In this document: positions 7,461 to 39,506 of the stretch, one piece after another
Position numbering within the stretch: position 1 is the stretch's first letter
Layout of the letters: every line of letters begins with the position of its first letter
DNA from: Candidatus Latescibacterota bacterium
GTDB taxonomy: Bacteria; Latescibacterota; UBA2968; GCA-2709665
DNA length: 64,000 nucleotides
NCBI GenBank assembly: GCA_965237675.1
Contig: OZ250150.1
Coordinates: 1,664,001 to 1,728,000 of the forward strand
Direction of reading: 5' to 3'
Notes under the pieces: generated by a model
The model's input: only the letters and a program-made list of their open reading frames with translations
Database searches by the model: none
Told to the model about the DNA's origin: nothing
Program-made: the position numbers and the translations under genes

Positions 7461-7687
7461 TGCACACCTCCCGGTGTTCTGCTCCGGAAATATGTCACCA
7501 TTCTTCCGCCTGTCTGTGTGCAGGTCTTCCGCACAGGCAGGCCGGTTCATACCGTCTCCCTGCGTTGCTTGCGCTGAGCTTGTCGAAGTGCCTTCACTCG
7601 CCGACCTTGGGCAGGTCGCAGGTGCCTTGCGAGCCGGGCGACTCGTCGGCCGAATTTCGGCAATCTATTCCCGGGACAGAACAATAG

Positions 7688-8488: not shown

Positions 8489-8556
8489 AGGGTTTCCTCC
8501 GGTGTAGATTGTAAACGAAAAGTGGGTGCCAAGGCGGTCAGCTCCGTACGTCTTCG

Positions 8557-11380: not shown

Positions 11381-11430
11381 ACAGTTGCGCCCCCAATCGT
11401 GTCGATGAGAGCCCGCCGCGTTTACCCGTT

Positions 11431-12063
11431 TTATACCCTTCTTACCCGGCACACCGCCCGGGAACCGGCGTCACAGTACCAGAACGCCCCCTCCCACATC
11501 GTCATCCCGTGCGGTTCAGGGTAGTCTTCGGGAATCTCGATCTTTTCGCGGATAGCTCCGTCCGCCGCGTTCAACCGGTAAATTGCACGGTGGTTGGTTT
11601 CGACACACCAGAGATCCCTGCCCTCCCAGGCAATACCGTGCGGCCGTTCCCCGGGAGAGGGAAAAGAATGTACCACTTTGAAACCGCTCTGCAGATCCAC
11701 CTGATATATCGTCGCCGATGGCGGCACGGCCATCCACAGGTGGCTGTCACGGATCTCAAGGCCGTGAGCCCCGGTGACATCCGCGCCAGGGGTATCGAAC
11801 CGTTCCAGCGTTTCACCCGTCTGCCGGTCCACACACAGAATTTCCCGGTTATATGTGGACGCCAGCCACAGCGCCGGCCCCGTATCCGTAATCCCGCTCC
11901 CGCGATCCGACGCCGTATCCATTGTCTTTAATACTTCACCCGAGAAGGAAACCAGATCCGCCTGGTTCGTTTTCTGATCCAGAATCCAGATTCCGTCGGG
12001 CGTTGCCTGCATGCCATTCGGCTGCGGCCCGGGCGCGTAAAATTCGTGTGTAATTTCCACCAT
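11431..12063 (-). CDS. Small beta-propeller protein (NHL/glutaminyl-cyclase-like repeats)
   Basis: Repeated P(N/H)G-x-x-W..G..(L/F)W units (PNGMQAT, AHGLEIRD, PHGIAWEG, PHGMTMWEG). Confidence 0.65.
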   Translation of the reverse strand: MVEITHEFYAPGPQPNGMQATPDGIWILDQKTNQADLVSFSGEVLKTMDTASDRGSGITDTGPALWLASTYNREILCVDRQTGETLERFDTPGADVTGAHGLEIRDSHLWMAVPPSATIYQVDLQSGFKVVHSFPSPGERPHGIAWEGRDLWCVETNHRAIYRLNAADGAIREKIEIPEDYPEPHGMTMWEGAFWYCDAGSRAVCRVRRV

Positions 12064-12251
12064 GCGATTGTTCCCGATCACCCGTTTTCCAGTTTAAGAG
12101 GTCCTGTCCAGTCCGATTTCCCAGGCGCCCCGAGGGCTTCGCAGCGCGAGAAGTGTGAGAACGTCCTTAACCTACCCTTCGACCATTGCCCCAACGGCCA
12201 CGGCGACTGAATCGCCAGCGGAGAGGAGGACAGCATCCGCGACCTCTTCGG

Positions 12252-12911
12252 CTAGAGTTGGAGCCGGCTACGCTCCAATGCCCGTTTCACTAACTCAGTA
12301 GGAACAGACGCCTGCGAAGTCCAGAATCGGCTTGGGTGGGTCAGTTGCACCACCTGCAACCCATACCCATTTTTAAAAGTGAGGCTCTCATATCCGCGTC
12401 TGTTTTTTTCTGTAAAGGAGTCTATTGGCCCAGAATCGGCCTTCAAGAAATTTCGAACGAGGTTCCCGCATTTCCGCTTTCCCAAGCAGACAACCACCTT
12501 AACTCCCAATTTTCCTATGACTTCCTCGTGGAATGGCCAACACTTTCTTGCAAGACGCCTCATCGCTAGCGTTTGTTCGCTTTGCGATCTCAAGAAGACC
12601 AGGTTGCTTGCTGGCACTTCGCAAGGATCAAGTTCAAGATAATCGAAGAAATGGTGGCGTAGTCTCTTGTGGAAATCGTCCGCGCCTTCCCGATATCTTG
12701 ACCAATTCTCCATTTCCGGGCGGTTGAGGATACTCTCTACGTTGTCCCCGACTCGATCTTTTGCGTCTGCAGGGTCTCCCCCGGAATTTATGCCAAGCAA
12801 GTACAAATCTCTTGGCGACTCAAAGGCCTTCCTGCCGGAGTAAAACACTCGGCCTGGTTTCTCTATTAGCGATTCGGGCACCAGCGCTGCGAACTCTTCA
12901 ATTGTCGCCAT
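12252..12911 (-). CDS. Uracil-DNA glycosylase-like superfamily protein
   Basis: LLGINSGG, SNLVF.RS, VVVCLGK, LTHPSR; visibly more AT-rich than its neighbours. Confidence 0.7.
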   Translation of the reverse strand: MATIEEFAALVPESLIEKPGRVFYSGRKAFESPRDLYLLGINSGGDPADAKDRVGDNVESILNRPEMENWSRYREGADDFHKRLRHHFFDYLELDPCEVPASNLVFLRSQSEQTLAMRRLARKCWPFHEEVIGKLGVKVVVCLGKRKCGNLVRNFLKADSGPIDSFTEKNRRGYESLTFKNGYGLQVVQLTHPSRFWTSQASVPTELVKRALERSRLQL

Positions 12912-13022
12912 ACACCTTCCCCATCCTGATTAATTCATGATTTGTTAGCTGCTTTGTTCGCGAATCCATCATCTCCTCGCCCGCACAATGGCGTGTAGAA
13001 CCGTTGAGGAAGTAAATATGAA

Positions 13023-13737
13023 GGTGGGGTAGACATTCCTGTCTGCCCTTCTCATCGTTCTTCTGCCGGAATGCACACACAAGAATGGCTTGCGCCGCCT
13101 TTATAGAGCCAATACTCGTGGTCGCGCAGTCCGGATTTTGTGGGGTTTTCCGCGATGTAGCGGACGAATCGCCAATACTGCTTATCGCTGCGCACAATGT
13201 GATCATAGGACTCGCCAAGCCAGAAAGTACCGGTGACGCCCATGAGTTTGTTGATTTCGCGGGCAGATGCACCTTTAATGCCCTGCAAAATCCGCGAAAG
13301 CTCATGGCCTCCGAGCGGCTCCGTAAGGAGGTGAACATGTGTGGGCATGATGACGGCTGCGTGAAGCCGGTGTCTCTCGCCGTCGAACCGCAAAGGACAG
13401 TTCTTGACAGCTTCACGGGCATCGACGCGCGCCAGGGCACGAGAACCCATGCCGGCATCGAGCCAGGATTCGATCTTTTCATCGAAACGTCTGTTGTTTT
13501 CTTTCCAATCGGCGTCAGTCCACGGTTCAGGGTGGCGCTTGAGCCACAGCTTACGCGCTTCCTGAAAGGCGCGGCGTTTGTCCGGGGGGATCGCGTCGGC
13601 GATGCGAAAGGTGATCCAATAGATAGCGCCGTCCTTTTGCCAGTGGGGGAGACGGCGGCGCGTCGCGGTGTGTCCAGACACAGGATTCGGAGGTTCCGGT
13701 TTGATGTATGTGAGCAGACAAGAATGTCCGCTCCACC
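13023..13737. repeat. Inverted GTGG-type REP hairpins flanking the RAYT
   Basis: 13023-13048 GGTGGGGTAGACATTCCTGTCTGCCC; 13712-13737 reverse complement GGTGGAGCGGACATTCTTGTCTGCTC; degenerate third copy at about 13072-13100. Confidence 0.75.
13052..13681 (-). mobile_element. REP-associated tyrosine transposase (RAYT, Y1 HUH)
   Basis: RRRLPHW...YWITFR, VIMPTHVHLL (HUH), FW..ESYDHIVR, YIAENP; bracketed by inverted REP hairpins. Confidence 0.88.
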
Positions 13738-21831: not shown

Positions 21832-23931
21832 CTATAAACGAGCCGTTCCGGCCTCCGTCAAACCATATGCCTGGCCCTCGCCCAGCACCGTCCCCCATCG
21901 CTCGTCGTCCAGGTGCTCGAGCGCGAGCCCGATCCGGCCGCCGGACGGCCCTCCAAGCACATATATGCTCTCCGGCCGTTCCGGAAGCACCGGGCCCCGG
22001 ACAGGGGCCGCATCGTCCTCGGACGAAGGCACAAGAACAAGCTGTGGCGAACTGCCGGGGACTGCATACCAGAGAGAGATCATCGAATCGTCCGCCGTCC
22101 CAGTGACGATGCAATCTCCGCCGTGAGGCAAAATCGCCCACAGGACGTCCAGGGTCGTCTCGCCGGCCATCGCGAAACGAATGCGGAGGTCCACCTGATC
22201 CATCGCATCCAGATCTTCGGGCGGAATGTCGTAACCGGACAGATAGACTTTCCAATAGGGGTCGACCGGCTGCGGGACCCGTTCGACCGTCGACGCCTGC
22301 GAACAGATCTGATAGAGCCGGCATGCCTGCCCGGAAGGCGCTTGCAGCCGGATCGATCCGTCCGTACCGATCCGGGTTTCGACCTCATGCCCGACGTGAA
22401 AATGGGCTTCCACGGGGCGGGGCTCACGGCCGGAGAACCGGACACGATCCAGAACGAACACGGTGTGGCGGTCCCTTGCGTGCAACACGGTTCGTTCGAA
22501 GGAGAACAGGCCCGGTACGTCGGGATACGCCCCCGCCGCCTCACACCGCACGGCCGAATACACGTTTTTCTCACCGCAGTAAACGCCCGTCACCTCGCCG
22601 CTGGTGTCGGGGTCGACCGACTGTCCCCGCCCGTCGAAGGTGAGCGTATTTTTGAACCCGGTATCAAACCGAAAATACCCCGAAGGTCTGAAAAAATAGT
22701 GCCCGTTGACAAAATACGTAAAACTCGCACGGTCCCGATAATGGGCGTGTTTATTGTGGGTGATGGTCTGTATCGGAAGCCACGAATCTCTCCGCGCCTG
22801 CGACAGACGGCCGCCCGGAAGCGTACACTCGAAACTCAACACCGACGCGTCGTTGTCGAATCCGGTGCGTGAAAAAAACTGACCCAATGAGGGGAAATAG
22901 GCCGCTGCCGGCAGACCGTCCGGCGGCCGCGCCTCGACCCGTGGATCGTACCACAAGAGGCTCCAGCCGTATTCGTGGTAATCCTTCAGAAACGTCCGGT
23001 AAGACTCCTGTTCCGCCTGCCACTGCGCCAGGCCGTCGTTGAACTCGGACGCGAGTTTGTATAGCTGGAACGCCACGACGCCGCCGGTTTCCCCGTGATA
23101 CCGGCCGCTGGGCGTCGAATCGTCCAGAAATACGTACGTTCCGTCCGGCAGAAGGTGGTACGCACGCCAGCAGGACAGCGCCTTGAGCCATGCGATATCA
23201 AACGCATTTTCTCCGAAGATTCGCTTGCGGCCCTCCAGGTAGAACAACATCGGCCCCAGCGCGTAGTTCAGTGGCGCCACGCCCTCGTTCCACGCGCCAT
23301 CGCTCCCCTGAATGGAGACAATCCGTTCCACCTCTTTTTCAACCGTAGACAACCAGTTCCCGGCTTCGTCCGTGAACGGAAGCAGCGCCAGACAGCCGAC
23401 GCCGGCGCCGAAAATCGGCACCCAACAGTCGTGGTAATGGTATCGCCGGCTCCAGCCGGCCTCCCCCGTATCCATATGCCGGACCATCCGCCCGGTCTCG
23501 ACCCGCAACACCTCCACCGCCCGGCGCACGAGCGCATCCGGGAGAACTTTCCCGAACAGGTCCACGCCATAGGCCAGCGCCATGACGTGGAAGGCCACCA
23601 GATAGGAGGATTTGACCTTTTCGTCATCGGCGGCGCCTGCCTCGATCCATCTGGCCAGCCAGCGTTCGGCCAGATCGCTCCAACGTTTGTCGCCGCTGAG
23701 ATGATAGGCGATGCCACAGTTCACAACCAGAGAAAAACAGATCTCGAGGATATCGCTATACGCCGGCTCCTCCAGATCCCAGAGCGTATTGGGAGGATCG
23801 TGGGCCAACCGTCCGTTCAGATCTTCGACCAGCGCCCGGTAGAACTGCGCATGCGAAGAGGCGATGCGCCCGCGCAGTTCGTCGAGATCATCGGCAGACA
23901 GAATCAGACGCGGCGCCGCTGGATCCACCAT
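21832..23931 (-). CDS. Heparinase II/III-like (DUF4962-type) protein
   Basis: PRLIL N-terminus, helical domain, DGAWNEG, F.RTGF, HAH..D..SF, NTLTFDGRGQ, F.RTV..., VLDRV. Confidence 0.72.
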   Translation of the reverse strand: MVDPAAPRLILSADDLDELRGRIASSHAQFYRALVEDLNGRLAHDPPNTLWDLEEPAYSDILEICFSLVVNCGIAYHLSGDKRWSDLAERWLARWIEAGAADDEKVKSSYLVAFHVMALAYGVDLFGKVLPDALVRRAVEVLRVETGRMVRHMDTGEAGWSRRYHYHDCWVPIFGAGVGCLALLPFTDEAGNWLSTVEKEVERIVSIQGSDGAWNEGVAPLNYALGPMLFYLEGRKRIFGENAFDIAWLKALSCWRAYHLLPDGTYVFLDDSTPSGRYHGETGGVVAFQLYKLASEFNDGLAQWQAEQESYRTFLKDYHEYGWSLLWYDPRVEARPPDGLPAAAYFPSLGQFFSRTGFDNDASVLSFECTLPGGRLSQARRDSWLPIQTITHNKHAHYRDRASFTYFVNGHYFFRPSGYFRFDTGFKNTLTFDGRGQSVDPDTSGEVTGVYCGEKNVYSAVRCEAAGAYPDVPGLFSFERTVLHARDRHTVFVLDRVRFSGREPRPVEAHFHVGHEVETRIGTDGSIRLQAPSGQACRLYQICSQASTVERVPQPVDPYWKVYLSGYDIPPEDLDAMDQVDLRIRFAMAGETTLDVLWAILPHGGDCIVTGTADDSMISLWYAVPGSSPQLVLVPSSEDDAAPVRGPVLPERPESIYVLGGPSGGRIGLALEHLDDERWGTVLGEGQAYGLTEAGTARL

Positions 23932-24510
23932 CGGGGAAATTCTCTACCGAATCGGGGATGAAATCGAGTGGCCCAACCTGCACAACATACACGAGATGAC
24001 AGGGATCTCCGGGTTGAAAACAGTTCCCGCGTTGCGCCGACGGCACAGCGAAATTCCGCTCCGATACCGTTCAAATCCCAAAGAGCGCCAACTTTACGAA
24101 ATTCCTCATCCCAAGTCTAAACCATACCAGGAGCAATTGCAAGTCCCATTGACCGTGGAGTGAACGGCGGCGTTTCAATGACACGACGTTTTTGGACCTC
24201 AGTCGCTGGAAAAACAGTTTGGCCGGATCAACCAACACGTCCTGATAGCGGAAGTGGCACCGAGATTCGGGCAATGCGCGTCCTGTGGATGCAGAAGGGA
24301 CCGAGAGGCTCCTCCGTCCCCGACGTTAGTCGCCGGCGATCTCGTGCGACTGATCGCCTGCAGGTACGTGCGGCATAGGGCGATTATTCAGGGGAACTGT
24401 GTCCCCGATGCCGACCCGGATGAGGTATTTTGGTGATTTTTTTTGTGGGACAACCTGTTGCGGCGCATACACTATTAACCTAAAAAATACTACAAATTAT
24501 AATATTTCAT

Positions 24511-24538
24511 TTGACTCTTTGAGAATGAAACTTATAAA
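24511..24538 (+). promoter_or_regulatory. Possible sigma70 promoter for the giant FN3 gene
   Basis: TTGACT-N16-TATAAA in an AT-rich patch. Confidence 0.3.
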
Positions 24539-24881
24539 TTGGCGTCGCATAGTACGAAAAAAATGTCTCCGAAACAGCGTCCGCGAACGGTCCGAGGACA
24601 CGTCGTCAGGGAAACTGCCCGCCGGCGCCACCGTGCCTCATCTCCCAAAGAAACTGTTCGCCCTATTGCAAGGACATCTTGTGCAACTTCACAGATTCGA
24701 ATCGCCCGGTGCCCGGCACACCTCTGCCTCTTCTGGGATGCGAAGGCAGTACTGTGCCTTAAACCGACGGCGCTTCGCACGCTATGAAATTTTCCCGGAA
24801 AAGTGGGCCGACAATATACCCCTGAGCAAGCAGAAAAAACGCAATTTGTGTAGAAATCACAAACATTAAGGGTGCGACATA

Positions 24882-27800
24882 ATGTATTACGCTAAAAGAA
24901 ACGCCGCCAGCGGTATCGCTTTGTTCTTTGTTACAGTGTGGCTCTTGGGCTCTCCTAACCAATCTCACGGTCAGGATATACCAACGCCGACCGTAACTGC
25001 CGTCGCGGGCGACGGGCAGGTGACGCTGACGTGGGGTGAAGTTCAGAGTACAGATCGAGTTACATCCTGGAGATACGGCGTCAAGGAGGGCAGAAATCCG
25101 TATGATTGGAATGAAATACCAGGAAGCAACAGGAACACGACAACCTATACTGTGACGGGTCTGACCAACGGGATCTCGTACCGGTTCAAGGTTCAGGCGC
25201 GAGACGGAACAGAGACCGGTGCTTCGTCGAATACGGTGTCTGCCACCCCCGGGCAGGGGCAGGAATTCCCGACGCCGACCTTGAGTGCGTTAGCGGGAGA
25301 CGAGCAGGTGACGCTCACGTGGAGTGAGGCCGGCGCCACCGATCGAATTTTATCCTGGAGATACGGCGTCAAGGAGGGCAGACAATCGTATGTTTGGAAT
25401 GACGTGCCTGACAGCGACAGGAACACGACGTCCTATATCGTGACCGATCTGACCAACGGTACCTCGTATCGGTTCAAAGTCAGGGCGCAAGACGGAAACA
25501 ACCTTGGACCTTCGTCTGACACTGCCTTCGCCACGCCTGGCCCGCCGCCGGGTGATGCGCCCGGTGCGGTGACGGGGCTGGGTGCGAGTGGGGGCGTGGG
25601 AGAGGTGACGCTGTCGTGGACGAATCCGAGCGGCACGGTCACGTCGAACGAGATCCGCTATGCGGCGGCGGGCGAGTCGCTGCCGGAGACGTGGACGGAC
25701 ATTGGGGTTGCGACGAGCTATACGGTGGGGAGTCTGACGGACTGCACGGAGTATACGTTCGAGGTGCGTGCCGAGAACGCGACAGGCGCGGGCCCTTCGG
25801 AGAGCGTAACGGAGACGCCGGGTGATGCGCCCGGTGCGGTGACGGGGCTGGGAGCGACGGCGGGCGTGGGAGAAGTGGCGTTGACGTGGACGAATCCGAG
25901 CGGCACGGTCACGTCGAACGAGATCCGATACGCGGCGGCGGGCGAGTCTTTGCCGGAGACGTGGACGGACATCGGGGTTGCGACGAGCTATACGGTGGGG
26001 AGTCTGACGGACTGCACGGAGTATACGTTCGAGGTGCGCGCGACGAACAGTTGCGACGATGGCGGGTCGGACAGCGTAACGGAGACGCCGGGTGATGCGC
26101 CCGGTGCGGTGACGGGGCTGGGAGCGACGGCGGGCGTGGGAGAAGTGGCGTTGACGTGGACGAATCCGAGCGGCACGGTCACGTCGAACGAGATCCGATA
26201 CGCGGCGGCGGGCGAGTCTTTGCCGGAGACGTGGACGGACATCGGGGTTGCGACGAGCTATACGGTGGGGAGTCTGACGGACTGCACGGAGTATACGTTC
26301 GAGGTGCGCGCGGTGAATGGGTGCGGCGATGGCGGGTCGGACAGCGTAACGGAGACGCCGGGTGATGCGCCGGGTGTGGTGGCGGGGCTGGGTGCGAGTG
26401 GGGGCGTGGGAGAGGTGACGCTGTCGTGGACGAACCCGAGCGGCACGGTCACGTCGAACGAGATCCGATACGCGGCGGCGGGCGAGTCGCTGCCGGAGAC
26501 GTGGACGGACATCGGGGTTGCGACGAGCTATACGGCTGGGAGTCTGACGGACTGCACGGAGTATACGTTCGAGGTACGTGCGATCAACGGCTGCGGCGAT
26601 GGCGGGTCGGACAGCGTAACGGAGACGCCCGGCAGCGCGCCGGGTGTGGTGGCGGGGCTGGGTGCGAGTGGGGGCGTGGGAGAGGTGACGCTGTCGTGGA
26701 CGAACCCGAGCGGCACGGTCACGTCGAACGAGATCCGATACGCGGCGGCGGGCGAGTCGCTGCCGGAGACGTGGACGGACATCGGGGTTGCGACGAGCTA
26801 TACGGTGGGGAGTCTGACGGACTGCACGGAGTATACGTTCGAGGTACGTGCGATCAACGGCTGCGGCGATGGCGGGTCGGACAGCGTAACGGAGACGCCC
26901 GGCAGCGCGCCGGGTGTGGTGGCGGGGCTGGGTGCGAGTGGGGGCGTGGGAGAGGTGACGCTGTCGTGGACGAATCCTGGCGGCACGGTCACGTCGAACG
27001 AGATCCGATACGCGGCGGCGGGCGAGTCGCTGCCGGAGACGTGGACGGACATCGGGGTTGCGACGAGCTATACGGTGGGGAGTCTGACGGACTGCACGGA
27101 GTATACGTTCGAGGTACGTGCGATCAACGGCTGCGGCGATGGCGGGTCGGACAGCGTGACGGAGACGCCCGGCAGCGCGCCGGGTGTGGTGGCGGGGCTG
27201 GGTGCGAGTGGGGGCGTGGGAGAGGTGACGCTGTCGTGGACGAATCCTGGCGGCACGGTCACGTCGAACGAGATCCGATACGCGGCGGCGGGCGAGTCGC
27301 TGCCGGAGACGTGGACGGACATCGGGGTTGCGACGAGCTATACGGTGGGGAGTCTGACGGACTGCACGGAGTATACGTTCGAGGTACGTGCGATCAACGG
27401 CTGCGGCGATGGCGGGTCGGACAGCGTGACGGAGACGCCCGGCAGCGCGCCGGGTGTGGTGGCGGGGCTGGGTGCGAGTGGGGGCGTGGGAGAGGTGACG
27501 CTGTCGTGGACGAATCCTGGCGGCACGGTCACGTCGAACGAGATCCGATACGCGGCGGCGGGCGAGTCGCTGCCGGAGACGTGGACGGACATCGGGGTTG
27601 CGACGAGCTATACGGTGGGGAGTCTGACGGACTGCACGGAGTATACGTTCGAGGTACGTGCGATCAACGGCTGCGGCGATGGCGGGTCGGACAGCGTGAC
27701 GGAGACGCCCGGCAGCGCGCCGGGTGTGGTGGCGGGGCTGGGTGCGAGTGGGGGCGTGGGAGAGGTGACGCTGTCGTGGACGAATCCTGGCGGCACGGTC

Positions 27801-30800
27801 ACGTCGAACGAGATCCGATACGCGGCGGCGGGCGAGTCGCTGCCGGAGACGTGGACGGACATCGGGGTTGCGACGAGCTATACGGTGGGGAGTCTGACGG
27901 ACTGCACGGAGTATACGTTCGAGGTACGTGCGATCAACGGCTGCGGCGATGGCGGGTCGGACAGCGTGACGGAGACGCCCGGCAGCGCGCCGGGTGTGGT
28001 GACGGGGCTGGGTGCGAGTGGGGGCGTGGGAGAGGTGACGCTGTCGTGGACGAACCCAAGCGGGACGATCACGAACAATCAGGTTCGTTACGCGAAGGAA
28101 GGCACGGATATTAACACGAAGAGCTGGACGGATATCGGGGTGCTGACGAGCCACACGGTGGGCGGTCTGGACGATTGCGCTGAGTATACGTTCGAGGTGC
28201 GCGCGGTGAATGGGTGCGGCGATGGCGGTTCGGACAGCGTGACGGAGACGCCGACTGCGGGTTCAACCGCCGGTCCGGTGAGCGGCCTGACGGTGGCGGC
28301 GGTGCGCGCCAGCGCGGTGGATCTGTCGTGGACGAATCCGGCTGGCGTCACAAAGGTAGAGATCCGTCACGCGCAAAAGGGCGCGGCGTGGTCGTCCTGG
28401 TCGAACGTAGGTGTGGTGACGAGCTACACGGTATCGGGTGTGGACACTTACTGTAACGGCTATAATTTCGAGGTGCGGGCGTACGTCTGCGGTGGTGACG
28501 GATCGTCCAGCACGATGACGCAGGCGACCGGGTCCGCCCCAGGGCCGGTGCGCAACCTGAGCGCGACGGCGGGAAACCGGAGCGTGACGCTGAACTGGGA
28601 TGCTCCCAATACCGGCGGTACTGTCGGGATATATAAGATCCGGATTGGAGACATCACTAAGACCACCACGGGGACCAGCATTACAGTGTCGAACCTGACC
28701 AACTGCGCGGAGTATACCTTCACGGTGCTTGCCAACAACTGTATAGACGATGGCCCATCCAGAAGCGAGGATGCGACGCCGACTGCGGGTTCAACCGCCG
28801 GTCCGGTGAGCGGCCTGGGGGTGGCGGCGGTGCGCGCCAGCGCGGTGGATCTGTCGTGGACGAATCCGGCTGGCGTCACAAAGGTAGAGATCCGTCACGC
28901 GCAAAAGGGCGCGGCGTGGTCGTCCTGGTCGAACGTAGGTGTGGTGACGAGCTACACGGTATCGGGTGTGGACACTTACTGTAACGGCTATAATTTCGAA
29001 GTGCGGGCGTACGTCTGCGGCGGTGGCGGCGGATCGTCCAGCACGATGACGCAGGCGACCGGGTCCGCCCCAGGGCCGGTGCGCAACCTGAGCGAGACGG
29101 CGGGAAACCGGAGCGTGACGCTGAACTGGGATGCTCCCAATACCGGCGGTACTGTCGGGATATATAAGATCCGGATTGGAGACATCACTAAGACCACCAC
29201 GGGGACCAGCATTACAGTGTCGAACCTGACCAACTGCGCGGAGTATACCTTCACGGTGCTTGCCAACAACTGTATAGACGATGGCCCATCCAGAAGCGAG
29301 GATGCGACGCCGACTGCGGGTTCAACCGCCGGTCCGGTGAGCGGCCTGACGGTGGCGGTGCGCGCCAGCGCGGTGGATCTGTCGTGGACGAATCCGGCTG
29401 GCGTCACAAAGGTAGAGATCCGTCACGCGCAAAAGGGCGCGGCGTGGTCGTCCTGGTCGAACGTAGGTGTGGTGACGAGCTACACGGTATCGGGTGTGGA
29501 CACTTACTGTAACGGCTATAATTTCGAAGTGCGGGCGTACGTCTGCGGCGGTGGCGGCGGATCGTCCAGCACGATGACGCAGGCGACCGGGTCCGCCCCA
29601 GGGCCGGTGCGCAACCTGAGCGAGACGGCGGGAAACCGGAGCGTGACGCTGAACTGGGATGCTCCCAATACCGGCGGTACTGTCGGGATATATAAGATCC
29701 GGATTGGAGACATCACTAAGACCACCACGGGGACCAGCATTACAGTGTCGAACCTGACCAACTGCGCGGAGTATACCTTCACGGTGCTTGCCAACAACTG
29801 TATAGACGATGGTCCATCCAGAAGCGAGGATGCGACGCCGACTGCGGGTTCAACCGCCGGTCCGGTGAGCGGCCTGACGGTGGCGGTGCGCGCCAGCGCG
29901 GTGGATCTGTCGTGGACGAATCCGGCTGGCGTCACAAAGGTAGAGATCCGTCACGCGCAAAAGGGCGCGGCGTGGTCGTCCTGGTCGAACGTAGGTGTGG
30001 TGACGAGCTACACGGTATCGGGCCTGGACACCTACTGTAACGGCTATAATTTCGAGGTGCGGGCGTACGTCTGCGGTGGTGACGGCGGATCGTCCAGCAC
30101 GATGACGCAGGCGACCGGGTCCGCCCCAGGGCCGGTGCGCAACCTGAGCGCGACGGCGGGAAACCGGAGCGTGACGCTGAACTGGGATGCTCCCAATACC
30201 GGCGGTACTGTCGGGATATATAAGATCCGGATTGGAGACATCACTAAGACCACCACGGGGACCAGCATTACAGTGTCGAACCTGACCAACTGCGCGGAGT
30301 ATACCTTCACGGTGCTTGCCAACAACTGTATAGACGATGGCCCATCCAGAAGCGAGGATGCGACGCCGACTGCGGGTTCAACCGCCGGTCCGGTGAGCGG
30401 CCTGACGGTGGCGGCGGTGCGCGCCAGCGCGGTGGATCTGTCGTGGACGAATCCGGCTGGCGTCACAAAGGTAGAGATCCGTCACGCGCAAAAGGGCGCG
30501 GCGTGGTCGTCCTGGTCGAACGTAGGTGTGGTGACGAGCTACACGGTATCGGGCCTGGACACCTACTGTAACGGGTATAATTTCGAGGTGCGGGCGTACG
30601 TTTGCGGTGGCGATGGATCGTCCAGCACGATGACGCAGGCGACCGGGTCCGCGCCCGGGGCCGTGACCAACCTCGGTGCGAGGCGGGAGGGTAGCGGGAA
30701 TATTAGTTTGACATGGACGAATCCAGGCGGCCCGATAACCGAGAGTCAGATCCGTTATGCGAAAACGAGCACGTTACTTCCGACCACTTGGACCGACATA

Positions 30801-31658
30801 GGCGTCAAGACGAGCTACAAGGTGACCGGCCTGACCAATTGTGCCGAGTATACCTTCCAAGTGCGTGCGAAAAACTGCCGCGGTGAGGGCGGCCCCGACA
30901 GCGACACCGAAACGCCAGCGGCATATTTGTCCGTGGCCTCAATATCGAAGGTGGCGGCCTCCAGAAACGAGTTTATTACTGCGATCCAGGTGAGTCCAAG
31001 TGGCGGATGTACACCTTACACGTATAGTCTTTCGGCAAACGCAAGTGCTGCCGGTCTCTCTATTTCGTCTGGTGGGAAGATCAGTGGCGACCCGCCAACG
31101 CTTGGCAGTTGGACGATCACCGTGTCTGTAACCGACGCCAATAGCAGCACGGTCTCCAAGTCATTCAAGATAGTCGTGGCTGAGCCCCTCGTAATTGGTC
31201 CGATCCACGAATTTTCCGGGCAAGTTGGCCTGTATTTTTCAGAAGGTCCTTTGGATGTCTCCGGCGGGCAGACCCCCTATTCTTATTCGCTTTCCGGCGC
31301 GCCAACCGGACTGGAGATTACCAGTTCCGGTGTGATTCAGGGCACGCCGACGGCGGATGGTTATTTCGACGTTACTTTGACCGTGACCGATAATGACGGA
31401 CGCACCGAATCGCACTTGTTTGGAATAGATATCCCGTTGGACGGCGACTTCAACGGCGACGGCACGCGAGACGCTTCCGACGCTGCCCTGTTCAAGAAGA
31501 AATCGGGGCTCAGGTCGTCGGATTCGGGGTTTGACTCCAGAATGGACCTGAACGGCGACGGGACCATCAATTTCGCCGATCTCGTCATTCTGAGCGGCTA
31601 TATTCAACGAGACGCGTCGTCGCAGAGCAATAGTGAATCAGATGATGATTCAGAATGA
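24882..31658 (+). CDS. Giant secreted surface protein: signal peptide, 22 FN3 domains, 2 putative Ig (He_PIG) domains, C-terminal dockerin-like domain
   Basis: FN3 signatures (VTLSW...Y...LT..T.Y.FEVRA.N); He_PIG (SGG.TPY.YS...GL.I.S.G.I.G.P); two Ca loops GDFNGDG..D and DLNGDGTINFAD. Confidence 0.9.
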   Translation: MYYAKRNAASGIALFFVTVWLLGSPNQSHGQDIPTPTVTAVAGDGQVTLTWGEVQSTDRVTSWRYGVKEGRNPYDWNEIPGSNRNTTTYTVTGLTNGISYRFKVQARDGTETGASSNTVSATPGQGQEFPTPTLSALAGDEQVTLTWSEAGATDRILSWRYGVKEGRQSYVWNDVPDSDRNTTSYIVTDLTNGTSYRFKVRAQDGNNLGPSSDTAFATPGPPPGDAPGAVTGLGASGGVGEVTLSWTNPSGTVTSNEIRYAAAGESLPETWTDIGVATSYTVGSLTDCTEYTFEVRAENATGAGPSESVTETPGDAPGAVTGLGATAGVGEVALTWTNPSGTVTSNEIRYAAAGESLPETWTDIGVATSYTVGSLTDCTEYTFEVRATNSCDDGGSDSVTETPGDAPGAVTGLGATAGVGEVALTWTNPSGTVTSNEIRYAAAGESLPETWTDIGVATSYTVGSLTDCTEYTFEVRAVNGCGDGGSDSVTETPGDAPGVVAGLGASGGVGEVTLSWTNPSGTVTSNEIRYAAAGESLPETWTDIGVATSYTAGSLTDCTEYTFEVRAINGCGDGGSDSVTETPGSAPGVVAGLGASGGVGEVTLSWTNPSGTVTSNEIRYAAAGESLPETWTDIGVATSYTVGSLTDCTEYTFEVRAINGCGDGGSDSVTETPGSAPGVVAGLGASGGVGEVTLSWTNPGGTVTSNEIRYAAAGESLPETWTDIGVATSYTVGSLTDCTEYTFEVRAINGCGDGGSDSVTETPGSAPGVVAGLGASGGVGEVTLSWTNPGGTVTSNEIRYAAAGESLPETWTDIGVATSYTVGSLTDCTEYTFEVRAINGCGDGGSDSVTETPGSAPGVVAGLGASGGVGEVTLSWTNPGGTVTSNEIRYAAAGESLPETWTDIGVATSYTVGSLTDCTEYTFEVRAINGCGDGGSDSVTETPGSAPGVVAGLGASGGVGEVTLSWTNPGGTVTSNEIRYAAAGESLPETWTDIGVATSYTVGSLTDCTEYTFEVRAINGCGDGGSDSVTETPGSAPGVVTGLGASGGVGEVTLSWTNPSGTITNNQVRYAKEGTDINTKSWTDIGVLTSHTVGGLDDCAEYTFEVRAVNGCGDGGSDSVTETPTAGSTAGPVSGLTVAAVRASAVDLSWTNPAGVTKVEIRHAQKGAAWSSWSNVGVVTSYTVSGVDTYCNGYNFEVRAYVCGGDGSSSTMTQATGSAPGPVRNLSATAGNRSVTLNWDAPNTGGTVGIYKIRIGDITKTTTGTSITVSNLTNCAEYTFTVLANNCIDDGPSRSEDATPTAGSTAGPVSGLGVAAVRASAVDLSWTNPAGVTKVEIRHAQKGAAWSSWSNVGVVTSYTVSGVDTYCNGYNFEVRAYVCGGGGGSSSTMTQATGSAPGPVRNLSETAGNRSVTLNWDAPNTGGTVGIYKIRIGDITKTTTGTSITVSNLTNCAEYTFTVLANNCIDDGPSRSEDATPTAGSTAGPVSGLTVAVRASAVDLSWTNPAGVTKVEIRHAQKGAAWSSWSNVGVVTSYTVSGVDTYCNGYNFEVRAYVCGGGGGSSSTMTQATGSAPGPVRNLSETAGNRSVTLNWDAPNTGGTVGIYKIRIGDITKTTTGTSITVSNLTNCAEYTFTVLANNCIDDGPSRSEDATPTAGSTAGPVSGLTVAVRASAVDLSWTNPAGVTKVEIRHAQKGAAWSSWSNVGVVTSYTVSGLDTYCNGYNFEVRAYVCGGDGGSSSTMTQATGSAPGPVRNLSATAGNRSVTLNWDAPNTGGTVGIYKIRIGDITKTTTGTSITVSNLTNCAEYTFTVLANNCIDDGPSRSEDATPTAGSTAGPVSGLTVAAVRASAVDLSWTNPAGVTKVEIRHAQKGAAWSSWSNVGVVTSYTVSGLDTYCNGYNFEVRAYVCGGDGSSSTMTQATGSAPGAVTNLGARREGSGNISLTWTNPGGPITESQIRYAKTSTLLPTTWTDIGVKTSYKVTGLTNCAEYTFQVRAKNCRGEGGPDSDTETPAAYLSVASISKVAASRNEFITAIQVSPSGGCTPYTYSLSANASAAGLSISSGGKISGDPPTLGSWTITVSVTDANSSTVSKSFKIVVAEPLVIGPIHEFSGQVGLYFSEGPLDVSGGQTPYSYSLSGAPTGLEITSSGVIQGTPTADGYFDVTLTVTDNDGRTESHLFGIDIPLDGDFNGDGTRDASDAALFKKKSGLRSSDSGFDSRMDLNGDGTINFADLVILSGYIQRDASSQSNSESDDDSE
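25551..28253 (+). repeat. Ten tandem ~270-bp coding repeats (one FN3 each)
   Basis: Units start every 270 bp from 25551; units 6-9 essentially identical; unit 10 diverged. Confidence 0.95.
28254..30650 (+). repeat. About 4.5 tandem 528/531-bp coding repeats (two FN3 each)
   Basis: Equivalent positions recur at 28351, 28879, 29407, 29935 and 30466. Confidence 0.95.
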
Positions 31659-31832: not shown

Positions 31833-32642
31833 ATGTGGAACCGTATTTTTTCAACCATCTGTTCAGCGTTTGTGTTGACTGGTCCGGCATTGGCGGGAGA
31901 GATGACCACGGGCCTTGACATTGGCGGAGGCCGCAACGCGTCTGCAAAACTGACGCTGGTTCGGGTGAATGATCCTGCCGCCGATAACGAAACTCTGAAG
32001 GTGCGCGTCTCTTTATTGCATGTAGAAGACGTGAAGGGATACGGCTTTTTGCTACAATACGATACGGACAGGTATGACTTCCTGGAGGCCAGAGAATTGG
32101 CCGACAGTTTTCTAAAATCGGGCTCCGGCGGGAAGCCGGTGTCGATGGCTTCGAACCGCACGCCGGGAAAGTTGGAAATCGGCGCCGTTAAGATCGATGG
32201 CCAAGTCGCCGGCGGGGAGGGCGATCTGGTGGACCTCGTCTTCAGGACGAGCGTCACGCCGTCCGCGGAAGATTTCCAGATAACAGAGAGCGTGCTGGTG
32301 GGGCTGGACGGTGCGGTCGAACCGTTTACAAACGTTGAGATAGGCGACTTGAGACCGCTTCCAGACGCCCACGGTCTGGATCGGAACGCGCCGAATCCGT
32401 TCAATCCGTCCACGGTCATCGGATTTCGGCTTCCCGAGGCCGGCAGGGTGCGGCTGGTGGTCTACAATCTTCTGGGCCAGGAGGTGCGTGTTCTGGTGAA
32501 CGAAAAAATGGAGGCGGGTTATTTCACGATGACATGGGATGGGACCGATGAACTGGGCCGGCGCGTTGCCAGCGGTGTGTATATCTACCGTATGAAGGCC
32601 GGCGCCTTCTCGGCGACCCGGAGGATGTTGTTGTTGAAATAG
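31833..32642 (+). CDS. Secreted cohesin-like domain plus FlgD-Ig/T9SS type-A-like C-terminal sorting domain
   Basis: Signal peptide; VKGYGF.LQYD...GEGDLVDLVFR (cohesin-like); NAPNPFNPST.I.F.LP...VYNLLGQEV...WDG.D..GR.VASGVY.YR...RRMLLLK. Confidence 0.85.
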   Translation: MWNRIFSTICSAFVLTGPALAGEMTTGLDIGGGRNASAKLTLVRVNDPAADNETLKVRVSLLHVEDVKGYGFLLQYDTDRYDFLEARELADSFLKSGSGGKPVSMASNRTPGKLEIGAVKIDGQVAGGEGDLVDLVFRTSVTPSAEDFQITESVLVGLDGAVEPFTNVEIGDLRPLPDAHGLDRNAPNPFNPSTVIGFRLPEAGRVRLVVYNLLGQEVRVLVNEKMEAGYFTMTWDGTDELGRRVASGVYIYRMKAGAFSATRRMLLLK

Positions 32643-33267: not shown

Positions 33268-35164
33268 CCAGTCCTAAAATAAGCGAGTATTGATGTTTGG
33301 TGAACAGAATTGCAGATTTGTGCGACGTTGTGGTTGAATGACGTATGTGTGTTGTCTATTGAGGTGCGCGTGAGGTCGTTTTGAGGTTTGTGGAGTGTAA
33401 GTTGGTGAGGTAAAGCGCAGCGTTAGGGGTGTGTTGTTGGTGTCTGGTTGTGGTGTAGGCGTATTTGTCCGTTACGTCGCCGTGGGCGTCGTGGATCCCG
33501 TGGTATGTGATCACGGTTCGTGCGGGTGTCATGTGAATCCGGTGCGTTCGATGGTGGCCCAGGCGCTCAAGAGTCTTTTCAGGGATGGCTGATAGCCGAT
33601 GATGCGCACGGTGGTGCTTCGGGCGTGTCTCACGACACGACAGGGATAAAGGATGATGTGTGTGAGGAAGGTGCGAAAGTCCATTCGGATATATTTTCGG
33701 CGATGGTTTTTGCGATGCATCATCAGGGCAAACCACGACTTGATGTTCCAGGCCAGGGCGGCGATGACCATGTAGGCCCAGTTGCTGATCAGGTCATACA
33801 AGGGCACGCGCAGGGCATTGACGCCGTTTTTGAGCTGTTCGATCACGTTTTCCTGGTCGCATCGTTTGTTGGCAGCAACGACGACCTCGGCGGGCGTGAG
33901 GTCGTCGCGCGTGGTGATGTAGAAGAAGTATCGGAACGTGTCGAAGAGGGTCTGCTGGCCTTGGGTCTCACGGATGTTTTTGCGCAGCGCCACGACGCGG
34001 TAGGGGCGTTTGCACTTGCCGGGCTGGTAGTCAAACTCAGCCACGTCTTCGAAGGTGAGCGTCAGCTTGCGGTAGCCCCGCGCTTTGACGATACGCTGCT
34101 TCTCATTGTCCCGTCGCTGCCTTTTCTGGGGCGCGCGAGGGCGGTGCAGGCGCTGCCAGTTGGCTTCGTCAAGGGCCTCGGCGCGTGTTCGTAAGGTGCT
34201 ATTGCAGTCCATGCCGAAGATGAAATCGACGTCCTTCGCCCAGCGGTCCAAGTGAGCCGTAAGCGAAAAGTCCGTGTCGCCGCGTAGGCACACGCGCGGC
34301 GCGTGGGGCTTCACCAGCGCGATGGCCGCATCGATCCAGGGTGCGGCCCCCTGGTGAGAAGACGCGTTGCCCGGACGGTTGACCACGTACAGCACCTCTT
34401 TGGTGTTGGCCAACGATACGATCAGGGGCGCATAACCCCCACACGCCCTTGTAGGAGATGTCCATACCGCCCTTCTTCTCCCCATACGTCGGAGCGGTCG
34501 TACCATCCACATCGATGTAGGCGACCGGTTCCAGGAGTCTGGCAGCGCGTGTGCGCCACAACTTGGGGCGTACCGCGTTAATGCAGTCCATCAGCCCGAT
34601 CACGTCCGCCTCAGAAAAGCGACGCGTGAAGTCGCCCGCAGTGGTCGGGTCCGGGATCAACTCCGCGTTCAAGGCATTCATGTACGCCTCGTTGTGACGC
34701 AAACGCTCGATGTCCTCCAGACACGTGCCACCGCACATCACGTTGTAGGAAAGGTTCAACACGTGATCCGACTCATGATACGGCAGATGCACCTTCAGCA
34801 ACGCCAACGTCCCGTCGATCTGCTTGACCAATCCCAACTTGGTCACCAGTCGATGCACCGCCGCAATGCCACCAAAGCTCATCGCTTCTCCGTGCGCGCT
34901 GACCTCGTAATGCACATTACCGCTGCCAAACATCGGCTTGGCTTGCGCACAAAATCCACGGGCAAGCTTATGCCGAGCACGTACCCGACGCCCACATTTT
35001 TCACTGTTCCTGCGGCTGTTTTTTGTCGATATTCTTTTCACCGGAAAGGCCCCCTTCGTTGGAGTAGCAATTTCTCGTCCGATACTGCTAACTCCAACTA
35101 AGATAAGTCTTTCCGGTACTTTTGTACACAAAAATCTGAAAAAACCCGCTTATTTAGGGACTAG
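33268..35164 (-). mobile_element. IS1380-family insertion sequence (~1.9 kb)
   Basis: Imperfect terminal IRs CCAGTCCTAAAATAAGCGAG / CTAGTCCCTAAATAAGCGGG (16/20) enclosing an IS1380-type transposase; no clear TSD. Confidence 0.82.
33529..35041 (-). pseudogene. IS1380 transposase split by a +1 frameshift in a G run at 34436-34440
   Basis: HLPYHESDHVLN, PDPTTAGDF.RRF, IDVDGT, SYKGVWG|YAPLIVSLANT, LRGDTDFS, RCDQENVIEQLKNG. Confidence 0.85.
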
Positions 35165-36353: not shown

Positions 36354-39300
36354 ATGAAGAAGTGTGTTTTGTTTATCGGAATTCTTTCCCTCTGCACGGC
36401 ACTGGCTTTAAGCGGAAGCGCCTGGGCCGGCACGACCGGAAAGATCGTTGGGAAGGTCCTGGACAGACAGGGCGAATCGCTGCCTGGCGCCAACGTGGTC
36501 ATCGAGGGCCTGAACCAGGGGTCCACGGCCGATGCGGAGGGGTTCTACGTGATCCTGCGCGCCGATCCGGGGCTTTATACCGTTAAGGCGTCCCTGATCG
36601 GATATCAGACCGAGTCCCAGACGGATGTTCGGGTGCAGGCCGACGTGACCACGGAAGTTGATTTCACGCTCTATGAGGCGACGCTGGAATTGGGGGAGAT
36701 GGTTGTCAAGGCGGAACGCCCTCTCGTAGAGGTCGACAAGACCTTCAGCAAATACATCGTCGGCGCCGATGAGATCGAGCAACTTCCCATCGTGCGCACC
36801 ACCGCCGAAATGATCACGCTGCAGCCGGGCGTTCACCTCGACGGCTCCGACCGCATGCGGGGAAGCAACCGCCCCGGTGAGTGGCGAAGCCGCACGGGCG
36901 GAGACGTGGCCTATTACGTGGACGGTGTGAAAATTGTGAACAGCGACGGCGCCGGCTCCCACAACTGGAAGAGCATCAACCGGTCGACCGTCCAGGAGAT
37001 TTCCGTGGTTACGGGCGGGATGAACGCCGAGTACGGCAATGCTCAGGCCGGGGTCGTCAGTATAATTACGAAAGACGGCGGCCAGAACTTCCACGGATGG
37101 GCGGAGTACCGCCGGCAGCCGCCCGGACAGAAACACTGGGGCGCAAACGTCTACGAAAGCCCGATGCACCTCGACAAGATGCAATGGGGCGAGGGCGTAT
37201 GGGAGAACGAGCGTGATCCCGATACGGGCCGACTCACCCACCAGCGCGCGAACTACGACGAAATCATCGGGCACGAGGTGGAGGGAAATATCTCGGGCCC
37301 GCTTTCCAAGAGCGCTTCGTTCATCGTTTCGGGCAAGACGGCCCGGCTGGCGCCCACGTATCCCAGCGGCACGGCGAGGGGCTATTACGACGACATCGGT
37401 CGGTTTATTCCCTCGCTGACCAATTATCAGGGGTCATACAGCGTCACTGTCCGCGCATCCGAAAATATGAAGATGAAGATCGGCGGGTTGTTCGAGTACA
37501 ACAAGAAGTATATCGGAACCGACCGGGACACCTACCGGAACGAACGGTCCGCGGGTACCTCCAGCGGCGTCATCCGTGGCATTGTGTACGACAACGGGAA
37601 GAACATCTTCCTGCCGGAGGATTGGAGCGCGGCGGGCAAGATGAGCACGAACAACAATATGCAATACCTGGCCATCACCCATTCCCTTTCGCCCAGGACA
37701 TTTTACGACCTCCGGATTTCACGTTATTCAACCGTCGACGACACGAGCGACATTGCGAACACAACGACGGACGTGCGTACGGATGGGGACGGCTGGTTCG
37801 CCGTGGACCGGCAGGTGCGCCAGTACCAGGTTGCGGAACGGAATCGGTACCAGGTCAAGCTGGATCTGGCCAGCCAGATCACCAAGGGGCATTACGTGAA
37901 GGCCGGTTTCGAATTCATCAAGTACAGCATGTTTCTTACCCGCTACACGGGAGAGAGCGCGCAGGCCAGGCGGCTGGAGTTCGCGGGCGCGCAAGGCGTT
38001 ATCGGAGAGCCTGTCAAGCCCCAGCATCTCGCCATCTACGCGCAGGACAAGATGGAGTTCGAAGGCATGGTCATCAATGCCGGTCTGCGCCTGGATCTGT
38101 TCGATCCGGTATCCAAATTTCCGGCCTCGGGCGCTTACGCGTTCTCGCCCATGTACAACTCGCCGCTACGTTTCCAGAATGCGCCCCACCGTAAGCCGGT
38201 CGTGTTCAAGAACCTGAGCCCACGGTTGGGGGTGTCGCATCCCATTACGGCGCGTTCGTCCATGCACTATTTCGCGGGGCTGTTCCTGGCCTATCCGGAC
38301 ATTTATTATCTGTTCAACGGAGATTGGCGGACTTCGGGCCCGGACCAGGACTGGAACGGGAACGGCGTTATCGACTCGGGTGAGCAGTATAACGCCATGC
38401 GGCCGTCATACCCGATACGCAGCGGGCAGGGCACCACCGAAATCCGACCCGAAAAGACCGTGTCGATGGAGGTGGGCGCGGACTGGAACTTCGTGCAGGA
38501 CTATACCGGTGCGATCGCTCTATTTTACAAGAGCGCCAAAGATCAGTACCACTATCATTCCGACGTCCGTTTTTACGCGCCGCACAAGCAGGGCTACGTA
38601 CATCCCTACGCCCGGATCCTCCATAACAACGGGTTCGAAGAGCAGCGGGGACTGGAACTTTCCGTGCGGAAGCCGCTCAGCCACAACTTTGCCATAAACG
38701 TGGCCTACAACATGACCTGGGCGCAGGCCGGGTGGGGCAACTTCGACGCCTGGTTCAACTTCCTCTTTCCCGACTCCCTCTATGTCGCCAGCGGCCGCTA
38801 CTGGTACGAATACAGCGTGGAGAACGGCGTTGAGGTGCCGGTGCCCCTCACTCAGGACCAAATCCGAACGATCGGTCACAATGCCAACATTGCGATTCGG
38901 AGAAACGCCCGGCGGGACGGTAACCCGGGTGGCCGGGGTTACGAGCAGACCAGGATGACCGCCAGGGAGTACGGGCTCATCGGTCTGGACGACTTCGAAC
39001 TGGATCACATCCACGTATGGGCCAGGGGTTACCAGACCGGCCTGAACGCCGACGGCGGCGACATCCGAAACCAGGGCAGCCTGCAGTTCCTCTACCTCAC
39101 GCCGGGGGACTATGGCCCGAATTTCAACGTGTTCGGTAGCAAGATACTCGCCAACTGGCGGGTCAACCTGCTCTGGCGCATGCAGAATACCGGATCGTTC
39201 TGGTACACGCCCGCGAATGCCGGCCGGGAGCGGCGCCTGAGGCCCATCCGCACCTGGACCGACCTGGCCGTTGAGAAGCGCTTTCCGTTCGGCCGGGGGC

Positions 39301-39506
39301 GCGGCGATATAAGCCTGTTCCTGGAGGTGCGAAACCTGTTCAACCAGCAGGACGACAGTTCCTTCAATTCCACCGACTGGACCAACTGGGGCCTGCATAC
39401 GGCCCGTCCGGACAACTCTGAATTCCTCCTGTACGGGGATACCGACGACCGCAGATACTACAGCCATCCCCGGCGCATGGAAATGGGTCTGAGAATGCAG
39501 TTCTGA
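36354..39506 (+). CDS. TonB-dependent receptor with N-terminal carboxypeptidase-regulatory-like domain
   Basis: GKIVGKV.D..GE.LPGANV, LQPGV, VQEISVVTGGMNAEYGNAQAGVV, INAGLRLD, SPRLGVSHPI, PEKT..ME.G, C-terminal PRR.E.GLRMQF. Confidence 0.92.
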   Translation: MKKCVLFIGILSLCTALALSGSAWAGTTGKIVGKVLDRQGESLPGANVVIEGLNQGSTADAEGFYVILRADPGLYTVKASLIGYQTESQTDVRVQADVTTEVDFTLYEATLELGEMVVKAERPLVEVDKTFSKYIVGADEIEQLPIVRTTAEMITLQPGVHLDGSDRMRGSNRPGEWRSRTGGDVAYYVDGVKIVNSDGAGSHNWKSINRSTVQEISVVTGGMNAEYGNAQAGVVSIITKDGGQNFHGWAEYRRQPPGQKHWGANVYESPMHLDKMQWGEGVWENERDPDTGRLTHQRANYDEIIGHEVEGNISGPLSKSASFIVSGKTARLAPTYPSGTARGYYDDIGRFIPSLTNYQGSYSVTVRASENMKMKIGGLFEYNKKYIGTDRDTYRNERSAGTSSGVIRGIVYDNGKNIFLPEDWSAAGKMSTNNNMQYLAITHSLSPRTFYDLRISRYSTVDDTSDIANTTTDVRTDGDGWFAVDRQVRQYQVAERNRYQVKLDLASQITKGHYVKAGFEFIKYSMFLTRYTGESAQARRLEFAGAQGVIGEPVKPQHLAIYAQDKMEFEGMVINAGLRLDLFDPVSKFPASGAYAFSPMYNSPLRFQNAPHRKPVVFKNLSPRLGVSHPITARSSMHYFAGLFLAYPDIYYLFNGDWRTSGPDQDWNGNGVIDSGEQYNAMRPSYPIRSGQGTTEIRPEKTVSMEVGADWNFVQDYTGAIALFYKSAKDQYHYHSDVRFYAPHKQGYVHPYARILHNNGFEEQRGLELSVRKPLSHNFAINVAYNMTWAQAGWGNFDAWFNFLFPDSLYVASGRYWYEYSVENGVEVPVPLTQDQIRTIGHNANIAIRRNARRDGNPGGRGYEQTRMTAREYGLIGLDDFELDHIHVWARGYQTGLNADGGDIRNQGSLQFLYLTPGDYGPNFNVFGSKILANWRVNLLWRMQNTGSFWYTPANAGRERRLRPIRTWTDLAVEKRFPFGRGRGDISLFLEVRNLFNQQDDSSFNSTDWTNWGLHTARPDNSEFLLYGDTDDRRYYSHPRRMEMGLRMQF

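Follow-up and report, generated by a model that had tools for sequence, protein, structure and literature searches.

The window analysed here, a stretch of 64,000 nucleotides from contig OZ250150.1 of an uncultured, sediment-type Candidatus Latescibacterota bacterium (assembly GCA_965237675.1, positions 1,664,001 to 1,728,000), harbors a single open reading frame (ORF) on the plus strand (24882..31658) that encodes a giant protein of 2258 amino acids. The same protein is recorded from two contigs. It comprises a signal-peptide-like segment, 22 fibronectin type III (FN3) domains, numbered D1 to D22 below, two He_PIG immunoglobulin-like (Ig) domains and a dockerin, and the spacing of its cysteines suggests disulfide bonds between consecutive domains. 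The signal-peptide-like segment (residues 1-31; 24882..24974) was read by eye from a basic start, a hydrophobic stretch and the motif SHGQ, with a crude export filter as further support. Pfam fn3 (PF00041) matches 22 stretches with 628.8 bits (cut-off 25) and He_PIG (PF05345) two stretches with 69.2 bits (cut-off 24); the SprB repeat model (PF13573) also matches the C-terminal Ig domains (29.9 bits, cut-off 28). A type I dockerin with two DxNxDG-type calcium-loop repeats (31443..31604; Dockerin_1, PF00404, 36.7 bits, cut-off 22.9) follows. Because the same genome holds six cohesin matches, all six above cut-off, this dockerin is a plausible and likely anchor of the giant protein to a cohesin-bearing protein. 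For the C-terminal sorting domain of the type IX secretion system (T9SS), no NCBIfam match was found in the last 248 residues.

The giant protein contains exactly 40 cysteines, and two alignment columns hold 39 of them. None occurs in residues 1-287, i.e. in the signal peptide and in D1-D2 (24972..25556), which would be distal and unstapled, provided that the dockerin anchors the molecule. The chain starts in D3 (25557..25826), whose sole cysteine, C288 (LTDCTEY; codon 25743..25745), lies in the E-F loop and whose F-G loop reads ENATGAG. Each of D4 to D22 carries one cysteine at column 63 of the hidden Markov model (E-F loop) and one at column 75 or 76 (F-G loop), 12 or 13 residues apart: 13 in D4-D12 (25827..28268), which are 90-residue repeats of type A, and 12 in D13-D21 (28269..30659), where type B (YCNGY...YVCGG) and type C (NCAEY...NNCID) alternate. 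D22, the last FN3 domain (30660..30917), has C1987 in its E-F loop and C1999 in its F-G loop. The F-G motifs are NSCD in D4, NGCG in D5-D12, YVCG in five domains, NNCI in four domains and KNCR in D22. The 40th cysteine, C2043, is the proposed partner of C1987 and the lone cysteine of the He_PIG/SprB-like Ig domain 1 (30912..31187), where it is part of a GGC motif (SGGCTPY; codon 31008..31010) in the B-C loop. Ig domain 2 (31176..31436) is cysteine-free, with A at the N-terminal site and Q at the GGC site. A first-pass annotation, made from the letters alone, had listed 40 cysteines with the same distribution over D1 to D22 and had set the single cysteine of Ig domain 1 against the Q of Ig domain 2; the exact count, the cysteine positions with their profile columns and the Ig profile all agree with it, and its interval fits the codons of the first and last cysteine (25743 and 31008..31010).

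By our own gene and signal-peptide heuristics, cysteine makes up 0.60% of exported-like proteins in this genome versus 1.45% of cytoplasmic-like ones. The giant protein tops the exported-like set with its 40 cysteines; the runner-up has 20. The 19 two-cysteine domains are by no means 19 independent observations, since D4-D12 are about 95% identical to one another at the DNA level. The four repeat types are 34-48% identical and all keep the cysteines; judged from sequence divergence, the giant protein provides about four such types, together with the two chain ends, as independent units. Between D3 and D4, 199 of 212 bases are identical outside the F-G loop and 17 of 34 inside it; D3, the first repeat of the chain, thus appears to have lost only the cysteine that would be partnerless.

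Loop poles and cysteine adjacency

As the strands of the sandwich span the length of the domain, the A-B, C-C' and E-F loops lie at the C-terminal pole and the B-C, C'-E and F-G loops at the N-terminal pole. A published account, in excerpt, places the A-B, C-C' and E-F loops of one FN3 domain opposite the B-C loop of its successor (PMC2818841). An AlphaFold2 model was computed for D21-D22-Ig domain 1 from an input alignment of four rows, and strands were assigned by DSSP. D21 shows seven strands (block predicted local distance difference test, pLDDT, of 81-90), six strands were detected in D22, and the top fold matches of the model are FN3 tandems. Numbered within the fragment, C62 follows strand 52-56 and precedes strand 65-73 (the fifth and sixth strands of D21), and C74 comes just after the latter; in D22, C153 and C165 flank strand 156-163. 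DSSP on the model confirms the E-F and F-G loop assignment of the first-pass annotation. A bond within one domain, against which the annotation had also argued, is ruled out because in the model the 9-residue F strand separates the two cysteines. Among PDB entries searched by sequence, the five best matches (titin, RPTP delta, RPTP F/LAR and FN3con) have no cysteine at either site.

FN3 domains were annotated in all protein sets using a 90-column profile made from ten domains of the giant protein. Three sets, i.e. the best 150 representatives of 14,899 matches, 120 listed of 223 matches and the ORFs of related genomes, were combined to 175 proteins with 3041 full-length FN3 domains. A further search seeded with the protein P0062 (120 listed of 602 matches) yielded 113 new proteins with 1498 domains. 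The best 150 representatives include 121 other giant proteins with FN3 matches, and the majority of these have no cysteines at the E-F and F-G loops.

Within the giant protein, all 19 junctions with an E-F cysteine in domain n have a partner cysteine in domain n+1. In the 174 other proteins of the combined sets, an E-F cysteine in n and a B-C or F-G cysteine in n+1 occur together at 46 junctions and are both lacking at 2208; the cysteine at the N-terminal pole of n+1 stands alone at 14 junctions and the E-F cysteine at none. The corresponding numbers for the 113 further proteins are 3, 1166, 1 and 0. Over all 287 other proteins, an E-F cysteine followed by an adjacent FN3 domain has a facing-pole cysteine in 49 of 49 cases. 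The 46 junctions are not 46 events, because they come from six proteins (P0003, 20; P0011, 13; L036, 6; P0062, 5; P0124, 1; L032, 1), several of them kin. Domains with an E-F cysteine and no B-C or F-G cysteine of their own number 11, one in the giant protein and ten elsewhere. The reverse pairing, F-G of n with E-F of n+1, was rejected: it leaves both ends of the chain unpaired and produces mismatches, two in the giant protein and 23 in the others. The adjacency counts in other proteins hence support the pairing that the first-pass annotation had put forward, E-F of n with F-G of n+1, the bond itself being predicted.

The same annotation had proposed to look for offset ends in homologues. The start recurs in P0003 and P0011 and the end in P0003, P0011 and L036. 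P0003, from a sister species, is the orthologue by position: the genes on either side share 79-89% identity and the protein itself only about 46%, yet the cysteine code is kept. It shows, in this order, a domain with an E-F cysteine only, 16 two-cysteine domains, two domains with B-C cysteines (D21-D22, their F-G loops cysteine-free) and an Ig domain with a lone GGC cysteine. In P0011 the first cysteine-bearing domain has the E-F cysteine only, and an Ig domain with a lone GGC cysteine follows the last FN3 domain; in the partial protein L036 the last FN3 domain is likewise followed by such an Ig domain. P0124 and L032 possess one staple each, which closes in a domain with the F-G cysteine only.

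In P0062, E-F-only and B-C-only domains alternate five times, and its relative P0078 has the order E-F, B-C plus E-F, B-C. The relatives of P0062 (54-67% identity) differ in their number of staples: none in P0263 and P0071, one in P0261, two in P0078, P0262 and P0265, and five in P0062 itself; P0264 has one pair and a lone last cysteine. From this distribution, members of the family appear to gain or lose the two cysteines jointly, as pairs. In P0262 the A-B loop cysteine of domain n is once matched with the F-G cysteine of n+1. The partner can, so far as sequences indicate, shift within one pole, from F-G to B-C (D21-D22 of P0003, the P0062 family) and from E-F to A-B (P0262).

A search of 168 phylum genomes with the stapled FN3 pair as query gave close relatives in 4 of the 14 other members of the genus and in none of the remaining 153 genomes. 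In other phyla, loci were chosen solely by the E-F cysteine motif. The rule is obeyed in metagenome-assembled genomes of an Acidimicrobiia (L044) and of a Nitrospirae member (L049), the partner in the latter lying 103 residues downstream, as in the giant protein. Two Porticoccaceae loci (L047, L048) have the E-F cysteine matched with a cysteine in the tail after the domain. L046 does not obey the rule, and L045 is frame-broken and unreadable for it.

The C-terminal end of the chain offers a separate line of evidence. A second profile was made for He_PIG-like Ig domains and 618 of them were tabulated: 449 have neither cysteine, 122 the N-terminal cysteine only, 43 both the N-terminal and the GGC cysteine, and four the GGC cysteine only. 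Thus 43 of 47 GGC-bearing Ig domains have an N-terminal cysteine of their own. The four exceptions (P0001, P0003, P0011 and L036) each stand directly after an FN3 domain with an E-F cysteine (4/4). Since the GGC cysteine loses its own partner only there, the usual intradomain partner appears to have been replaced by the preceding FN3 domain; the GGC cysteine would normally pair within the N-terminal pole of its own domain, and here the partner would have moved to the neighbor. One case, in genome G013 (L078), falls outside the 4/4 count: a GGC-only Ig domain that follows an Ig domain with an extra cysteine.

Probable disulfide staples and rival explanations

We consider it probable that the 40 cysteines form 20 disulfides which link the E-F loop of domain n to the F-G loop of domain n+1, from D3 to Ig domain 1, in a secreted, dockerin-ended rod. 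The pairing is well supported by the comparative tests; the disulfide itself is putative. In this scenario the E-F cysteine at the C-terminal pole of n would bond the F-G cysteine at the N-terminal pole of n+1, the thiols presumably touching and being oxidised, and at the last junction C1987 of D22 would bond C2043 in the B-C loop of Ig domain 1. Every junction from D3 to Ig domain 1 would then possess a second covalent link beside the peptide linker, and the staples would stop hinge motion at the Pro/Gly-rich linkers. The staples would also make the rod inextensible: the F strand of each domain lies between its two cysteines, so that F strands and the 20 disulfides together would amount to an uninterrupted covalent line, roughly matching the folded rod in length, along which load could be carried without domain unfolding. 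With no DsbB or VKOR found in the genome, oxidation would have to occur extracellularly or by way of an unknown oxidase.

A far-reaching combination of these ideas, namely a covalent cable that runs without a break from D3 up to the Ig domain by the dockerin, a force-inextensible FN3 rod of about 70-80 nm, a stiffness set by redox conditions and a pole code that serves as a general rule for locked junctions in bacterial FN3 arrays, is a tentative proposal, which we would not yet expect to hold in all its parts.

Several observations weigh against the disulfide scenario. Kin proteins and internal repeats are not independent, so that junction counts exceed the number of events. Exceptions to the rule occur in a number of proteins: L046 has E-F cysteine domains followed by about 300 cysteine-free non-FN3 residues, P0090 carries a lone E-F-like cysteine, the last E-F cysteine of P0264 lies 34 residues before the end of the record, P0265 has one partnerless B-C cysteine, P0003 has one extra cysteine in an F strand and the eukaryotic phosphatase P0092 has a lone B-C cysteine. 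In the model, the arrangement of D21 and D22 deviates from most solved tandems by a root-mean-square deviation of 8-10 Å (best match 2gee, 3.6 Å); the Ig part is poor (pLDDT below 50, compared with about 80-90 in the FN3 part) and the predicted template modelling score is 0.53. The oxidation machinery adds to this list. DsbB (PF02600), VKOR (PF07884) and Thioredoxin_4 gave 0 matches in the 99.93% complete genome, in a search whose DsbB and VKOR controls matched in 6 and 3 of 14 genomes. Among 31 genomes of the lineage, DsbB was found in 0 and VKOR above cut-off in one. Only two DSBA-family matches exist, one cytoplasmic-looking and lacking a signal peptide, the other exported and atypical, with CPYG instead of CxxC. 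Cysteine parity, a test idea that reportedly goes back to Dutton and colleagues, gave even counts in 129 of 285 exported-like proteins (121 of 264 after removal of lipoprotein-like ones), i.e. no even bias, by crude heuristics and with no positive control. The search for an Erv/ALR oxidase was uninformative, as no control genome matched.

These redox data bear on the question of whether the cysteines, although facing each other at the junctions, form anything other than permanent disulfides: they could remain reduced where oxygen is low and bond once oxidised, which would give the rod a redox-dependent stiffness, or they could build a joint metal site. The missing DsbB, VKOR and Thioredoxin_4, here and nearly throughout the 31 related genomes, and the parity result would all fit, and covariation shows residue coupling and says nothing of chemistry. 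Nevertheless we judge this reading unlikely. Only the cysteine pair is conserved across families, with neighbors that differ (LTDC/NGCG, YCNG/YVCG, GLSCNT/APMCG), and for a metal site the giant protein, with only 9 histidines, offers no apparent fuller set of ligands. The genome encodes a haem-copper oxidase and the organism therefore likely meets oxygen. Real disulfides have moreover been solved in a comparable stem, that of GhpA, the grappling-hook protein of Aureispira, according to the excerpted text of a preprint (bioRxiv 10.1101/2024.01.29.577165).

Disulfides between molecules, which would cross-link rods into a surface sheet or mesh, are a distinctly more improbable alternative. Cysteines at both poles of the domains could bridge staggered neighbors, and GhpA stems are, in the same excerpts, seven-chain bundles; their interchain contacts, however, are described there as hydrogen bonds and their disulfides as intramolecular. 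A lattice would leave three things unexplained: the offset ends (a first domain with E-F alone, a last one with F-G or B-C alone), the loss of the N-terminal Ig cysteine exactly after stapled FN3 domains (4/4), and single isolated pairs such as that of P0261. The least credible scenario of all is a functionless pattern in which two cysteines of an ancestral repeat were copied by tandem duplication and the ends differ by chance: the near-identity of D4-D12 does make many of the 40 cysteines copies, but the pairs are kept in four well-diverged repeat types and in the P0003 orthologue despite change all around, the same rule is realised with other loops in unrelated families, and divergence in D3 is confined to the F-G loop.

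A side observation concerns the exported CPYG protein (C1:4143468-4145090, minus strand). Its 540 amino acids include a weak DsbA/Thioredoxin_4-like part, its predicted mature part has 14 cysteines, and a cohesin match (C1:4145698-4146015, minus strand) adjoins its gene. By its sequence it is a candidate for oxidative folding.

Neighboring genes and Ig arrays of paralogues

The giant gene is preceded by a non-coding region of about 950 bp that contains promoter-like sites; an ORF in this region (24399..24869, 156 codons) was judged spurious. The locus is flanked by a gene for a heparinase II/III-like protein (21832..23931, minus strand) and by one for a SusC-like TonB-dependent receptor with CarboxypepD_reg and Plug matches (36354..39506, plus strand). 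Compared with the sister genome, both flanking genes show 79-89% conservation, as against about 46% for the giant gene that they enclose. Directly after the giant gene, an ORF of 269 amino acids (31833..32642, plus strand) matches Por_Secre_tail (T9SS type A sorting) with 30 bits and also FlgD_ig. Two adjacent ORFs of 327 and 310 amino acids (33529..35131, minus strand) match the C-terminal and the N-terminal part, respectively, of DDE_Tnp_1_4, and have the look of a transposase broken into two pieces. In the sister genome, the syntenic interval from the giant gene to the SusC-like gene seems to be shorter, as would be expected of an insertion in the present genome.

Paralogues from the same genome (P0151 and P0153) and the protein at L078 in genome G013 were expected to share the FN3 code. 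This was not the case; their FN3 domains are cysteine-free and cysteines occur only in Ig arrays. P0151 and P0153 are giant dockerin proteins in which cysteine-free FN3 arrays are followed by He_PIG arrays; the two loci are C1:~346600-354000 (minus strand) and C1:~3117000-3123000 (plus strand), with the match of protein to locus unassigned. A cysteine at the domain start and a GGC cysteine 29-30 residues later co-occur in their Ig domains, and this pair probably forms an Ig disulfide by which the N-terminal strand is tied to the B-C loop. L078 (G013:C2:628000-643000) contains an ORF (7011..13259) for a 2083-residue protein of the paralogue type. Its second Ig domain is GGC-only and an extra cysteine lies 57 residues upstream in the preceding Ig domain, a constellation in which an Ig-to-Ig staple is possible. 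In the Ig arrays of six further proteins (P0058, P0130, P0133, P0139, P0193 and P0223), a cysteine is found about 11-15 (mostly 12) residues before each domain-start cysteine, late in the previous domain. Because this pattern repeats in every domain, the start cysteine could be bonded to the F-G cysteine of the same domain, which would be a different stapling scheme.

Comparison with known systems

A literature search, supplementary files left aside, found no description of disulfides between bacterial FN3 domains; the excerpt of a paper on usherin covers laminin-EGF disulfides only (PMC7317166). The assumption of the first-pass annotation that such stapling had not been described thus stands for bacterial FN3 domains in the literature searched. 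Interdomain disulfides in a bacterial Ig-like stem, that of GhpA, have, however, been published. Cryo-electron microscopy of GhpA showed intramolecular disulfides between nearby Ig-like domains, e.g. Cys2988-Cys3140, and the authors regard the disulfides as the likely basis of the straight, rigid stem; calcium-binding adhesins are also mentioned (excerpts of bioRxiv 10.1101/2024.01.29.577165). Both are giant proteins of the bacterial surface with a stem built from many Ig-fold repeats in succession, as far as the excerpts describe GhpA. The excerpts also compare GhpA to SprB, and the C-terminal Ig domains of our protein match the SprB model. There are differences as well. The repeats of GhpA are Ig-like and those of the giant protein FN3; the FN3 profile had 351 PDB matches, and GhpA is absent from the best 60. 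According to the excerpts, GhpA assembles into a heptameric bundle and carries glycans and a T9SS sorting domain, whereas the giant protein has a C-terminal dockerin. The two cysteines of the GhpA example are 152 residues apart; the predicted bonds of the giant protein have a spacing of 103 and run strictly from n to n+1 in an unbroken chain. Finally, the bonds of GhpA are solved and those of the giant protein are predicted from sequence.

Isopeptide bonds of the Spy0128 type are Lys-Asn/Asp amides that form autocatalytically, with the help of a catalytic Glu/Asp, inside one domain of Gram-positive pilins and adhesin stalks. As a functional analogy only, the giant protein would resemble such pilins in a load path that bypasses the fold and in a fibre that cannot be stretched by force; the pilin bond is an intradomain amide and the one proposed here an interdomain disulfide. 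MpIBP and SiiE are long Ig-fold rods stiffened at their linkers by calcium, which is held by acidic residues in a non-covalent, reversible manner. Here, too, an added element at each linker rigidifies an Ig-fold rod, the difference being that calcium is not covalent. In the insulin receptor, Cys647-Cys872 joins the FnIII-2 and FnIII-3 regions. The likeness consists in a disulfide between neighboring FN3-type regions of one receptor half; in contrast to a repeated junction staple, it is a single eukaryotic bond that holds two cleaved chains. An excerpt of the receptor literature names it as the alpha-beta disulfide (PMC8513149).

If the predicted bonds exist, they raise the question of how 20 pairs in one exported protein become oxidised in a lineage that lacks DsbB and has hardly any VKOR. 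They would also come with a sequence rule by which locked junctions can be recognised, a cysteine at the C-terminal pole of n plus one at the N-terminal pole of n+1, and with a blueprint from nature for building rigid protein rods. Disulfide staples would then represent, next to isopeptide bonds and calcium, a third route to a stiff, force-proof Ig-fold fibre on the bacterial surface, and the first such case for FN3 domains.

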